A DNA stretch of 64,000 nt from an uncultured Mycoplasmatota bacterium. Its GTDB lineage: Bacteria; Bacillota_I; Bacilli_A; RF39; UBA660. The translations under genes and the position numbers were made by a program. Shown here in pieces: positions 49,195-55,577 of this stretch; the stretch's first letter is position 1; each line of letters opens with the position of its first letter. The notes beneath the pieces are model-generated. The model was not told where the DNA came from and made no database searches. It saw nothing but the letters and a program-made list of their open reading frames with translations. Location: assembly GCA_947302655.1 (NCBI GenBank), contig CAMYVW010000001.1, positions 340,263 through 404,262 on the forward strand, given 5' to 3'.

Positions 49195-49230
49195 AATCCG
49201 ACAATATTCTAATTATTCATAAAATATAAT

Positions 49231-49257: not shown

Positions 49258-49764
49258 ATGGAAACAAATATTGTAGGTGCTAGTTTATTTGATAATATTA
49301 AACATATAGACGATGAAGGAAATGAATATTGGTACGCAAGGGAATTACAAAAGATATTAGATTATTCTCAGTGGAGAAGATTTGAAGATGTAATTAATAA
49401 AGCTATTACTTCTTGCAGAAATAATGAAAAAGATCCAAACTACTATTTTGCCATAGTTGGCAAAATAGTGAAAACAGGGGTTTCAACGATACAAATTAAA
49501 GATTTTAAACTATCTAGATATGCATGTTATTTGATTGCTCAAAATGGTGATCCAAGAAAGAAAATCATTTCTTTAGCTCAAAATTATTTTGTTACTAAAA
49601 CAAGAGAACAAGAACTTGAAGAATTAGTATATAAAGAAATGAGTGAAGATGATAAAAGAATATATCATCGAAATATAACTAAGAAAAAGAATTATTTATT
49701 AGATTAAACAGCACTTAAATCTGGAGTGAAGAACGAAGTAAAAAATAAAGAATTAAAACCTTAA
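49258..49764 (+). pseudogene. dinD: Truncated DinD-like (DNA-damage-inducible, Bro-like N-domain) gene
   Basis: FDNIKH..EYWYARELQKILDYSQWRRF, LSRYACYLIAQNGDPRK, AQNYF. TAA at 49705 is followed in frame by TALKSGVKN, then an early end; full-length members are about twice as long (from memory). Confidence 0.75.
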
Positions 49765-53517: not shown

Positions 53518-54525
53518 ATGAGAATACTTGTTACAGGAGCAACAGGTTATATTGGTTCACATACTTGTGTTGAACTACTTAATAATGGTTATGAAGTTGT
53601 AGGACTTGATAATTTTTCTAATAGTAAAAAGGAAGTATTAGATAAAATATTTTTAATAACTAATAAAGAAATTACTTTCTATGAAGGTGACATGCTTAAT
53701 AAAGAGATATTACGAAGAATCTTTAGTGAAAATAAAATTGATGCTGTTATTGATTTTGCGGCCTTTAAAGCTGTTGGTGAAAGTGTTGCAAAACCAGTTG
53801 AGTATTACACTAATAACATTTCAAGTGTATTAAATCTTTTAAGCGTTATGAAAGAATATAATGTTAAAAAACTTGTTTTTAGTAGTAGTGCAACAGTTTA
53901 TGGCGATCCTGAAGTTATTCCAATAACTGAAGAATGTAAAACCGGTGGAACAACAAATCCTTATGGAACAAGTAAATTAATGGTAGAACAAATATTAAAA
54001 GATCTATATAAGTCTGATGATACTAATGGAATATGCATTTTAAGATATTTTAATCCAATTGGAGCTCATGAAAGCGGACTTATTGGTGAAGAACCTAGTG
54101 GAATACCGGCAAACTTACTTCCTTATATATCTAAAGTTGCAACAGGAAAGTTAGAATGTTTAAGTATTTTTGGTGATGATTATGATACACCTGATGGAAC
54201 TGGAGTAAGAGATTATATTCACGTAGTAGATTTAGCTAAAGGCCATGTTAAAGCAATTGAAAAATTGCTTAAAGATGAAAAAGGTTTATTTATTTATAAT
54301 CTTGGAACAGGAAAAGGATATAGCGTTCTTGACATGATTAAAGCTTTTGAAAAAGAAAATGGTGTCAAGATTAATTATAAAATTTGCCCAAGAAGACCTG
54401 GAGATATTGCTACATGTTATAGTGATCCAAGTAAAGCAAAAAAAGAACTTGGATTTGAATGTACTAAGACTTTAGAAGATATGGTTAGAGATAGCTATAA
54501 TTATGAAAAGAAAAATATTGCTTAA
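53518..54525 (+). CDS. galE: UDP-glucose 4-epimerase
   Basis: TGATGYIGSH, FSSSATVYG, YGTSK, LRYFNPIGAH, GTGVRDYIHVVDLA. Confidence 0.97.
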   Translation: MRILVTGATGYIGSHTCVELLNNGYEVVGLDNFSNSKKEVLDKIFLITNKEITFYEGDMLNKEILRRIFSENKIDAVIDFAAFKAVGESVAKPVEYYTNNISSVLNLLSVMKEYNVKKLVFSSSATVYGDPEVIPITEECKTGGTTNPYGTSKLMVEQILKDLYKSDDTNGICILRYFNPIGAHESGLIGEEPSGIPANLLPYISKVATGKLECLSIFGDDYDTPDGTGVRDYIHVVDLAKGHVKAIEKLLKDEKGLFIYNLGTGKGYSVLDMIKAFEKENGVKINYKICPRRPGDIATCYSDPSKAKKELGFECTKTLEDMVRDSYNYEKKNIA

Positions 54526-54604
54526 TTAAGCAATATTTTTTTATATAAAAAAAGGAAATTCACTTTTTTTCGGAAATGTATATTAGTGAAAGGAAGTGAA
54601 AATT

Positions 54605-55540
54605 ATGAATAATGAAATAATCCTATTTGAGGATCAGGATGTTAAACTTGAAGTCAGTTTAAAGGACGAAACAGTTTGGTTAAATCAAAACTCAATAGCA
54701 AAATTATTTGGCGTAGCAAGAAGCACAATAACGGATCATATTAATAATATTTTGATTTCAGGTGAGTTAGAAGAAAAAACTTCTGTCGGAATTTCCGACG
54801 AAAGTTCAGGAGGAAGAAAGCCAAAACTATATAATCTTGATATGATTATTGCTGTTGGATATAGAGTTAATTCTAAAAAGGCTACAATATTCAGAAGATG
54901 GGCAACAAATATTTTGAAAGAATATCTAATAAAAGGTTATTCAATTAATATGAAAAGACTGAAATACTTAGAAAAAACTGTACAATTAATTGATGTTGCA
55001 TCAAGAATAGAAAATGATATTGACGTTAGTGATGCCAAAGAAGTAATTCATGTTATTAATTCTTATTCAAAAGCATTTGATTTACTTGATAAGTATGATC
55101 ATAAACAAATCATAAAACCCAAAGGTAAATTAGATCTAGCAAGAATTACGTATGATGATTGTAAGAGTATTATCGAAACACTTGAATTTAACAAAACAAG
55201 TAACATTTTTGGGCTTGAAAGAGATAAAGGTTTAGAGTCAATAATCAATAATATTTACCAGTCATTTGATAATAAAGACTTATATGAATCAGTTGAAGAA
55301 AAAGCAGCAAATCTTTTATATTTAATAATAAAAAATCATCCGTTTATTGATGGTAATAAGAGAATAGCAGCTACTATATTTGTCTATTTTTTAAGTTTCT
55401 ATAAAATATTATATGATAATGATGTATTGAATATTAATGGTAAAACTTTAGTAGCCTTAACGCTTCTTATTGCTGAATCTAATCCTAAAGAAAAAGAAAT
55501 AATGGTAGATTTAGTTATGAATCTTTTAATTAATAATTAA
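54605..55540 (+). CDS. RhuM-family DNA-binding domain fused to Fic/Doc domain
   Basis: ETVWLNQ..IAKLFG, YNLDMIIAVGYRVNS..ATIFRRWA, then AANLLYLIIKNHPFIDGNKRIAA. Confidence 0.9.
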   Translation: MNNEIILFEDQDVKLEVSLKDETVWLNQNSIAKLFGVARSTITDHINNILISGELEEKTSVGISDESSGGRKPKLYNLDMIIAVGYRVNSKKATIFRRWATNILKEYLIKGYSINMKRLKYLEKTVQLIDVASRIENDIDVSDAKEVIHVINSYSKAFDLLDKYDHKQIIKPKGKLDLARITYDDCKSIIETLEFNKTSNIFGLERDKGLESIINNIYQSFDNKDLYESVEEKAANLLYLIIKNHPFIDGNKRIAATIFVYFLSFYKILYDNDVLNINGKTLVALTLLIAESNPKEKEIMVDLVMNLLINN

Positions 55541-55577
55541 CAATTACTGGAAATATTATTCCAGTAATTGTTTTTTT
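55539..55577 (+). terminator. Terminator after rhuM-fic
   Basis: AACAATTACTGGAA-ATATTA-TTCCAGTAATTGTT plus T-tract. Confidence 0.85.

Follow-up and report, generated by a model that had tools for sequence, protein, structure and literature searches.

In phage lambda, the iterons of ori-lambda are located inside gene O, which encodes the O initiator, and the origin of pT181 is located inside repC. Both systems resemble the RhuM genes described here in that a dyad site lies within the coding sequence of its binding protein (in RhuM, a candidate binding protein), and in that the site and the specificity region differ together and travel as one module. They differ from RhuM in having several iterons and an unwinding region and in being replicon origins, whereas RhuM has one site in a chromosomal gene of toxin or defence type. 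No sign of origin features was found at the RhuM palindrome, which is present in a single copy at a stable position between galE and spoIVB. A palindromic site for a gene's own HTH protein is also known from parS, which lies inside spo0J/parB. Like the RhuM palindrome, parS is embedded in coding sequence and kept against codon preference; however, parS has a single conserved sequence that is present several times on a chromosome, whereas the RhuM palindrome is present once and is hypervariable between relatives. The Rickettsia palindromic elements and the inverted repeats of Nematomorpha mitochondria (PMC6649704) are translated in frame, as is the RhuM palindrome, but they are repeated, mobile or genome-wide and occur in many unrelated genes. 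The RhuM palindrome, unlike them, is unique in its genome and tied to one structural position of one protein family, where its sequence varies.

RhuM, DinD, DUF1016 and Fic genes have been reported as passengers of type I restriction-modification loci, among them a RhuM-Doc fusion, and RhuM has been proposed as a toxin-like defence component (PMC3710099, PMC9881135). Coding palindromes are absent from both papers, as is any suggestion that the RhuM N-terminus binds DNA, and full-text searches on RhuM, on Bro-N/KilA-N, and on coding or intragenic palindromes revealed no description of the element. The gene analysed here belongs to the same domain families as the RhuM/Doc passengers of type I restriction-modification loci and defence islands but, unlike them, it is solitary between galE and spoIVB and lies outside any restriction-modification locus; the same position was found in the related loci L102 and L205.

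Within the window, that is, the whole 64,000-nucleotide stretch of DNA that was analysed, the RhuM-Doc gene occupies positions 54605-55540 on the plus strand. Pfam and AF2 analyses of its 311-amino acid product revealed an N-terminal winged-HTH-like RhuM module, a long helix and a C-terminal Doc-type Fic domain. Residues 69-160 matched Pfam PF13310 (RhuM) with 77.5 bits (cut-off 33.7, E 1.3e-21), and the match to PF02661 (Fic/DOC) reached 48.8 bits (cut-off 24, E 1.3e-12). The Doc motif is HxFx(D/N)(A/G)NKR and the Fic motif HxFx(D/E)GNGR, and the catalytic motif read from the translation, HPFIDGNKR (aa 245-253; 55337-55363, plus strand), is by its sequence of the Doc type and not of the Fic type. 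Residues H245, F247, D249, G250, K252, and R253 were invariant in 64 relatives. A Foldseek search with the whole protein was dominated by weak Fic/Doc matches, and the C-terminal part resembled P1 Doc (3k33_A) with a probability of 0.98 and a TM score of 0.60. The gene is followed on the plus strand by a terminator hairpin at 55539-55572, with a 14-bp stem, a 6-nt loop, and a T-run.

The best inverted repeat of the gene, identified by sequence reading and homologue comparison, is the 29-bp in-frame palindrome AACTTCTGTCGGAA-T-TTCCGACGAAAGTT at 54778-54806, for which, being symmetric, no strand is given. The element was reproduced as the original prediction had described it, with Watson-Crick pairs at 12 of the 14 arm positions (T.G being one of the two exceptions), a perfect 7-bp core, and a location just after the predicted HTH. 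The dyad is centred on position 54792, the second base of the ATT codon for Ile63. The perfect core GTCGGAA-T-TTCCGAC (54785-54799, likewise strandless) falls in codon register as GTC GGA ATT TCC GAC (V61 G62 I63 S64 D65), so that GTC (V61) pairs with GAC (D65) and GGA (G62) with TCC (S64). The whole palindrome extends from the last base of K58 through T-S-V-G-I-S-D-E-S to the first base of S68, with the helix VARSTITDHINNI before it and YNLDMIIAVGYRV after it. Three of its codons are rare in the window, GTC accounting for 2.7% of Val, TCC for 1.8% of Ser, and GAC for 10.6% of Asp codons, and an equally good palindrome had a probability of 2e-5 when the peptide and the window codon usage were held fixed. 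A palindrome of equal raw score nevertheless appeared somewhere in the gene in 60% of synonymous resamplings, because the DNA is only 26.6% G+C, a rate that speaks for a palindrome lacking function, either a chance product of AT-rich DNA or a by-product of template switching that perfects quasi-palindromes. The single window sequence is not decisive on this point, whereas the comparison with relatives is, and the window copy is among the weaker palindromes of the family, having a 7-bp perfect core and two further mismatches that stem from a K66E change. Across the 1.04-Mb genome, the core is unique even with up to one mismatch allowed, which ruled out a dispersed palindromic repeat of the RPE, REP or MITE-like kind. 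An intrinsic terminator at this place was also rejected, since the sense strand has no T-run and the scan flagged the antisense strand only (54799-54785).

The family of RhuM-Doc fusions comprises more than 8000 matches, of which 80 loci were drawn from the genomes of uncultured Clostridia and Bacilli of the gut, with 20 more from relatives of the window genome. Comparison of 95 RhuM and RhuM-Doc loci revealed that the segment between 'GEL.E' and 'YNLD' exists as discrete cassette types, and that nearly every cassette type carries its own palindrome, at the same place but with a different sequence. Examples are AAATTCGGAAATTCCGAATTT, which encodes KFGNSEF, GGTATGTGCAAAATTTGCACATACC, which encodes EVCAKFAHT, CAGTATGCTCA-TTTTT-TGAGCATACTG, which encodes SVCSFFEHTA, and TGCAGTTGTTGCAAAATTTGCAACAACTGCA, whose arms of 15 nt are the longest observed. 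In 76 of the 95 ORFs, no inverted repeat anywhere in the reading frame was stronger than the one whose centre lies 25-80 nt ahead of the YNLD Tyr codon, where about 6% would be expected by position, and the mean best palindrome score at this place was 8.45, against approximately 4.5 in every other 30-nt bin. A lack of structural conservation across homologues would have spoken against the element, and the opposite was found. At the same time, the palindrome was weak or absent at the family position in approximately 10% of homologues (for example, loci L004, L009, and L074). The site is kept across many genera and also in a second family (Bro-N). It had further been proposed that the encoded peptide is the hypervariable part of RhuM proteins, again written by differing palindromes; this held across the 95 loci as a difference between cassette types but not within the gene's own subfamily, where the peptide TS[VIT]GIS[DG][KE]S is conserved.

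Between cassette types, the paired triplets of the two arms change jointly, as GTC/GAC, ATC/GAT, ACC/GGT, and TTC/GAA. A scan of metagenome contigs with the pattern ACTTCT NNN GGAATTTCC NNN AAAAGT, in which both triplets were free, returned 71 matches, 68 of which were RhuM genes or pieces of them. The triplets were exactly complementary in 66 of these 68 (ATC/GAT in 38, GTC/GAC in 21, and ACC/GGT in 7), while the two exceptions were a truncated gene (L134) and a sequence with one T.G pair (L149). Copies of the type-A palindrome in phages were also considered and rejected, as five matches of a looser pattern on viral contigs proved to be unrelated random matches. The triplet changes alter the protein (V..D, I..D, T..G) and swap the Asp codon between GAC and GAT; to judge from these sequences, constraint at the protein level would not require such joint changes, the GAC/GAT switch included. 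In a protein-registered alignment of 27 distinct type-A and type-B sequences, 90% of the cells were paired, compared to 75.9 +/- 1.5 in shuffled alignments, and none of 500 shuffles reached 90%. When the partner column was slid by one to three columns, at most 56% of cells paired, and both sides changed at six of the 13 pairs. The complementary-triplet and pairing counts do not represent independent events, and by our estimate they reflect a handful of ancestral double changes.

Synonymous sites in the palindrome were also found to be frozen. In 16 type-A genes collected without reference to the palindrome, its codons were ACT (16/16), TCT (16/16), GTC (9/9), GGA (14/16), ATT (14/14), TCC (16/16), and AGT (16/16), while flanking Ser, Gly, Leu, and Thr codons (4- to 6-fold degenerate) were each represented by three or four codons, with an entropy of 1.2-1.9 bits. 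In relatives with 91 and 86% protein identity, the core was unchanged while many synonymous sites round it differed, and an outer-arm change from GAA to AAA in locus L206 improved pairing. The comparisons show selection for strict Watson-Crick symmetry round an A/T-rich centre, which prevails over codon preference and sometimes over the amino acid. Chance in AT-rich DNA is excluded by the positional profile and by the frozen synonymous sites, not by any single sequence. Template switching during replication can alter both arms in one step, and this quasi-palindrome correction could turn GTC/GAC into ATC/GAT at once, as seen in the arms here. Template switching is, however, a mutational process, and it leaves unexplained the fixed position, the frozen synonymous sites, and the link with the recognition helix described below. 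A functionless palindrome is also at odds with a core made of rare, G+C-rich codons, with synonymous sites that stayed frozen in relatives diverged elsewhere, and with a site kept across genera and families; this reading is disfavoured, and we consider it highly improbable.

The form of the palindromes bears on whether the element acts as DNA or as RNA. A hairpin in the mRNA of a toxic protein, with a tuning effect on its translation, on ribosome pausing or on the stability of the transcript, was considered, and the window transcript can indeed form a fold of 12 pairs with -12.6 kcal/mol, in which one of the two mismatches is U.G; 10 G.U cells occur in the alignment. The fold reached, however, a z of only -1.8, with 14 of 200 shuffles folding as well, and the sense strand lacks the T-run. 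An RNA hairpin needs a loop, and the innermost pairs are then unusable, yet in 44 of 66 distinct palindromes the pairing reaches a 1-nt centre, and the central ATT was kept in all type-A genes scored for it. The central base may be either A or T, while the A..T pair flanking it is kept by way of ATT or AAT, which encode very different amino acids. Mismatches across the palindromes were G.T in 11 cases, A.C in 28, and other combinations in 80, so mismatches of the G.U type were not enriched. For contrast, the terminator hairpin upstream of the window gene keeps its stem and loses its centre in locus L102.

Bare copies of the palindrome also persist in untranslated intergenic DNA, as observed in loci L126 and L155. 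In L126, six RhuM-type palindromes lie in a 440-nt intergenic region upstream of a RhuM-Doc gene, with similarity to RhuM confined to 11-23 residues round each palindrome; one of the six, approximately 70 nt upstream of the start codon of that gene, is a near-copy of its own internal palindrome. Because of the 1-nt centres, the absence of G·U enrichment, and the intergenic bare copies, we concluded that the element acts as DNA and not as an mRNA hairpin, which we regard as improbable. The selected object is accordingly the symmetry of double-stranded DNA, and the palindrome is very probably a selected DNA element of some function.

A second palindrome with the same behaviour was found in the window in an unrelated gene. 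The Bro-N/DinD-like gene at 49258-49707 contains the perfect palindrome ACTATTTTGCCA-TAGT-TGGCAAAATAGT (49442-49469, strandless), with 12-bp arms, which encodes YYFAIVGKIV. The best palindrome was centred at residue 66 in 23 of approximately 26 near-full-length Bro-N homologues, including a second copy of the gene in the window genome, and the arms differ between homologues and co-vary, as in ACCATTTTGCCAACGTTGGCAAAATGGT, ATTGGCTTGTTGAGGTCAACAAGCCAAT, and ACCATTTTGGAGTTAACTCCAAAATGGT. The proposal that two unrelated genes of the window share the trait was borne out by these homologues, whose palindromes occupy one residue position with differing sequences, and profiles of inverted-repeat strength along RhuM and DinD-like homologues peaked at a fixed position in both families. 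The wider idea of a general trait was upheld for the two families of RhuM and Bro-N/DinD-like genes. The architecture of the Bro-N palindrome differs from that of the RhuM palindrome.

Structure prediction placed the RhuM palindrome within a likely DNA-binding domain. Two AF2 models were made, one of the whole protein (pLDDT 71.5) and one of residues 1-111 (pLDDT 86, pTM 0.78). The predicted elements were, in order, strands 5-10 and 13-18, helices 28-35 and 39-52, a short helix at 57-60, strand 61-63, which a loop joins to strand 74-76 (74-77 in the wing as delimited below), and helices 78-87 and 91-110. In these models, a helix-turn-helix is formed by helix 28-35 and the recognition helix 39-52 (RSTITDHINNILIS; together 54686-54760, plus strand), and it is followed by a wing, a beta-hairpin of residues 61-77 (54785-54835, plus strand), with a first strand at 61-63, a tip at 64-73, and a second strand at 74-77 (KLYN). 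The tip was predicted with lower confidence (pLDDT 67-74 for the block 61-70). According to the models, the palindrome encodes the first strand and the tip of the wing of a predicted winged helix-turn-helix. Foldseek searches with the N-terminal domain alone gave winged-HTH DNA binders as best matches, led by the N-terminal domain of DdrC (probability 1.0, E 5e-3); other matches were to the MarR family, including complexes with DNA, and to the APSES proteins PCG2 and Mbp1, none of them with E <= 0.001. No sequence relatives of the N-terminal module were found in the PDB.

Residues of the recognition helix were found to vary together with the palindrome. The coupling was analysed in 103 type-A proteins, on a tree for which only their C-terminal part was used. 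Among these proteins, H39 or R39 always occurred with GTC/GAC, Q39 with ATC/GAT, and x-N-T-I-N/S with ACC/GGT; the window gene has R39 with GTC/GAC, and its R39, S40, and T43 are the residues at positions that track the state of the palindrome. The association, expressed as the share of state entropy, was highest at position 39 (0.85), followed by 38 (0.61), 43 (0.51), 37 (0.42), and 40 (0.39). Columns 47-58, although closer to the palindrome, reached only 0.16-0.37, and columns 66-75 reached 0.08-0.34. Recognition helices usually contact bases through their positions 1, 2, and 5, and Arg or His usually pair with G and Gln with A, the 434 repressor being the textbook case. The pattern is as would be expected if the helix reads palindrome positions +/-6/7, although this evidence is correlative, and the statistic ignores kinship among sequences that derive from few ancestral states spread by recombination. 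Given these few states and a helix situated only 45-60 nt from the palindrome, linkage as the source of the association is lessened but not removed. The match is also not a strict code, as R39 occurs with TTC in locus L046.

The same data bear on the possibility that the site, or a structure formed by it, is read by another factor, such as a host nucleoid or repair protein, a phage protein, or the sensing of supercoiling through a cruciform, with the link to the helix arising by hitch-hiking. The evidence for symmetry at the DNA level fits such a reader equally well, and the Bro-N trait, with its different architecture, is compatible with a common external reader that recognizes structure and not sequence. 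However, the sequences differ by cassette type while position and symmetry are kept, so that an external factor reading the sequence would require a separate specificity for each type, and helix positions 39, 38, 43, and 40 associate with the palindrome more strongly than the nearer columns do. A reader of this kind seems unlikely to us.

The helix and the palindrome appear to be transmitted together. The state of the palindrome changed at least 13 times on the C-terminal tree, and because so many changes are needed, the N-terminal module must move between backbones. Locus L205 is an instance from the lineage of the window itself: at the same chromosomal place, with the same backbone and near-identical flanks, amino acids ~28-105 are replaced and a different palindrome, TGTCGCAAAATTTGCGACA, stands at the same position. 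At the level of sequence, these comparisons show a DNA dyad that selection keeps at one structural position and that appears to be passed on and swapped along with the helix-turn-helix as a single module. The palindrome might itself promote this exchange, as a hairpin or cruciform (perhaps cut by an SbcCD-like activity) that favours recombination or gene conversion of the specificity module, the short palindrome-bearing pieces found upstream of some genes being donors or leftovers. Besides the repeated changes of state on the backbone tree and the clean swap in L205, such a role would account for locus L097, where remnants of RhuM N-terminal modules are stacked upstream of an intact gene, for the six mini-pieces in L126, which are RhuM-like over only 11-23 amino acids round the palindrome, and for the truncation or deletion breakpoints at palindrome edges in L172 and L134. 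Yet the exchange boundaries in L205 lie approximately 30-40 codons to either side of the palindrome and not at it, the mini-pieces lack the flanking homology needed for conversion, and donor-like arrays are rare, none being present in approximately 75 upstream regions. Moreover, the remnants were found by a palindrome search, so that nearby breakpoints are partly an effect of ascertainment, and neither the strict symmetry up to the centre nor the link with the recognition helix is explained. Both a recombination role for the palindrome and the donor or leftover status of the upstream pieces are considered unlikely.

The best explanation for these observations is that the palindrome is a candidate binding site, encoded by the gene itself, for the protein's own DNA-binding domain, to which we give an even chance on the strength of the sequence comparisons. 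RhuM-family genes carry this dyad-symmetric DNA site in their own coding sequence, directly after the recognition helix, and a dimer of the protein's own winged HTH would bind the palindrome as its cognate site. The recognition helix and the site would form one specificity module of approximately 80 codons, transmitted and swapped as a whole. On a speculative note, binding in cis within the gene could act as a transcriptional roadblock and result in tight, self-limited expression; an equally speculative alternative is that cis binding tethers the Doc-type toxin domain to the chromosome until a trigger releases it.

Against binding of the protein to its own gene stand the single intragenic site, which has no obvious promoter-proximal role, and the absence of upstream RhuM-type palindromes in approximately 75 loci checked. 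The near-copy ahead of the start codon in L126 speaks for such binding. In the promoter region of the window gene, the motifs GGAAATTC (54554-54561) and TCGGAAA (54570-54576), both on the plus strand and together spanning 54554-54576, resemble the palindrome centre and one half-site, respectively. The sequence TCGGAA/TTCCGA occurs seven times in the 64 kb, and GGAAATTC twice. As operators these candidates were rejected, since neither TCGGAA (54570) nor GGAAATTC (54554) is retained beyond the near-identical loci L102 and L103; other type-A relatives have promoters unrelated to that of the window gene. For TCCGAC at 49197, upstream of the Bro-N gene, wider similarity was looked for and none was found, and the original caution that such upstream half-sites may be chance was therefore justified. 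No LexA (SOS) box GAAC-N4-GTTC was found near the RhuM-Doc gene; such a box follows the -10 box in 8 of 13 type-A relatives.

The RhuM module is not known to have any activity. A joint reading of the two palindromes, which we put forward tentatively, is that RhuM and Bro-N/DinD-like proteins share a portable 'self-address' that makes them dock in cis on their own gene only, setting the dose of the protein and keeping its effector domain, in the window gene a toxin of the Doc kinase type, on the chromosome until infection or DNA damage sets it free. In this joint reading, the 'self-address' may consist of a DNA-reading helix and a private palindrome in the adjacent wing codons, which together would make up one exchangeable module; this part is equally tentative.

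Of the unexplained passenger genes in restriction-modification loci, prophages, and defence islands, those for RhuM, Doc/Fic, and Bro-N/DinD-like proteins rank with the commonest. The conserved, co-varying site within the gene offers a cheap and concrete hypothesis, namely that the RhuM module is a sequence-specific DNA binder whose target may be read from its own gene, with predicted specificity swaps in which R39 or H39 goes with G and Q39 with A. The palindrome also presents a clear case in which selection on DNA symmetry outweighs both codon choice and protein sequence, and symmetric sites of this kind would be misread by gene-finding, codon-usage, and dN/dS analyses.

RhuM-type palindromes and pieces of RhuM genes were also detected outside intact RhuM-Doc genes. 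At L126, a homologous locus, six such palindromes spaced 50-190 nt apart occupy positions 1381-1822, between an RseP-like gene and a RhuM-Doc gene of type C. Five of the six have the centre GCAAAAA(A/T)TGC and one is of type A; the fifth in order matches the internal palindrome of the adjoining RhuM-Doc gene, while the sixth shares sequence with its ribosome-binding site and start codon. The first also resembles a terminator of the upstream gene.

At a second RhuM-Doc locus, L097, stacked remnants of RhuM genes (1400-2200) lie immediately 5' of the intact gene. The first is a fragment from the C-terminal side of the N-terminal module, and the next is an N-terminal module of a different cassette type, fused in frame to 'KGYVVNQKRL...'; this stack looks like the residue of module replacement. 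In two metagenome contigs the breakpoints fall at or near the palindrome: in L134 a deletion has fused its 3' edge with the Doc domain's C-terminal end, and in L172 similarity to RhuM begins no more than 6 nt from its 5' edge. These junctions may reflect fragile palindrome edges or, alternatively, retention of those remnants that keep the palindrome.

The galE terminator of the window is a perfect palindrome with 14-bp arms (54511-54540, AAAATATTGCTTAATTAAGCAATATTTT). In L102, a relative with 91% protein identity, its stem is retained while the centre is non-palindromic, which indicates that, in contrast to the coding palindrome, it acts as a conventional hairpin. On the antisense strand (minus, 54799-54785), the core of the coding palindrome is followed by AGAAGTTTTTT, an arrangement that was terminator-like by consensus scan and that could stop antisense transcripts. 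In the homologue P0062, considered at the protein level, the variant wing peptide TSTVFSGES, with a changed centre, occurs together with the helix RNTIS.

The Bro-N/DinD-like gene of the window (49258-49707) contains a perfect in-frame palindrome with 12-bp arms (49442-49469). Among some 26 homologues of nearly full length, 23 have the palindrome centred at this same residue, 66; they include a second Bro-N gene of the source genome (L194, TTATCATTTTGCGGTACAACGCAAAATGATAA), and the arms differ between homologues.

Upstream analysis of type-A relatives revealed a LexA-box-like sequence, GAACAATAGTTC, exact or with one mismatch, in 8 of 13 (L024, L025, L023, L027, L028, L030, L034, and L038), located approximately 60-90 nt 5' of the RhuM-Doc start and immediately 3' of a TTGACA-N17-TATAAA promoter. 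The RhuM-Doc copies bearing this box are probably SOS-induced. The promoter of the window's gene is unlike that of these eight and has no LexA-like box. Despite the Doc-like C-terminal domain, no small antitoxin-like ORF adjoins the RhuM-Doc gene in the window (54605-55540) or at L205, which has the same locus and backbone with a swapped N-terminal module; control of the toxin domain may reside inside the RhuM-Doc fusion protein itself.
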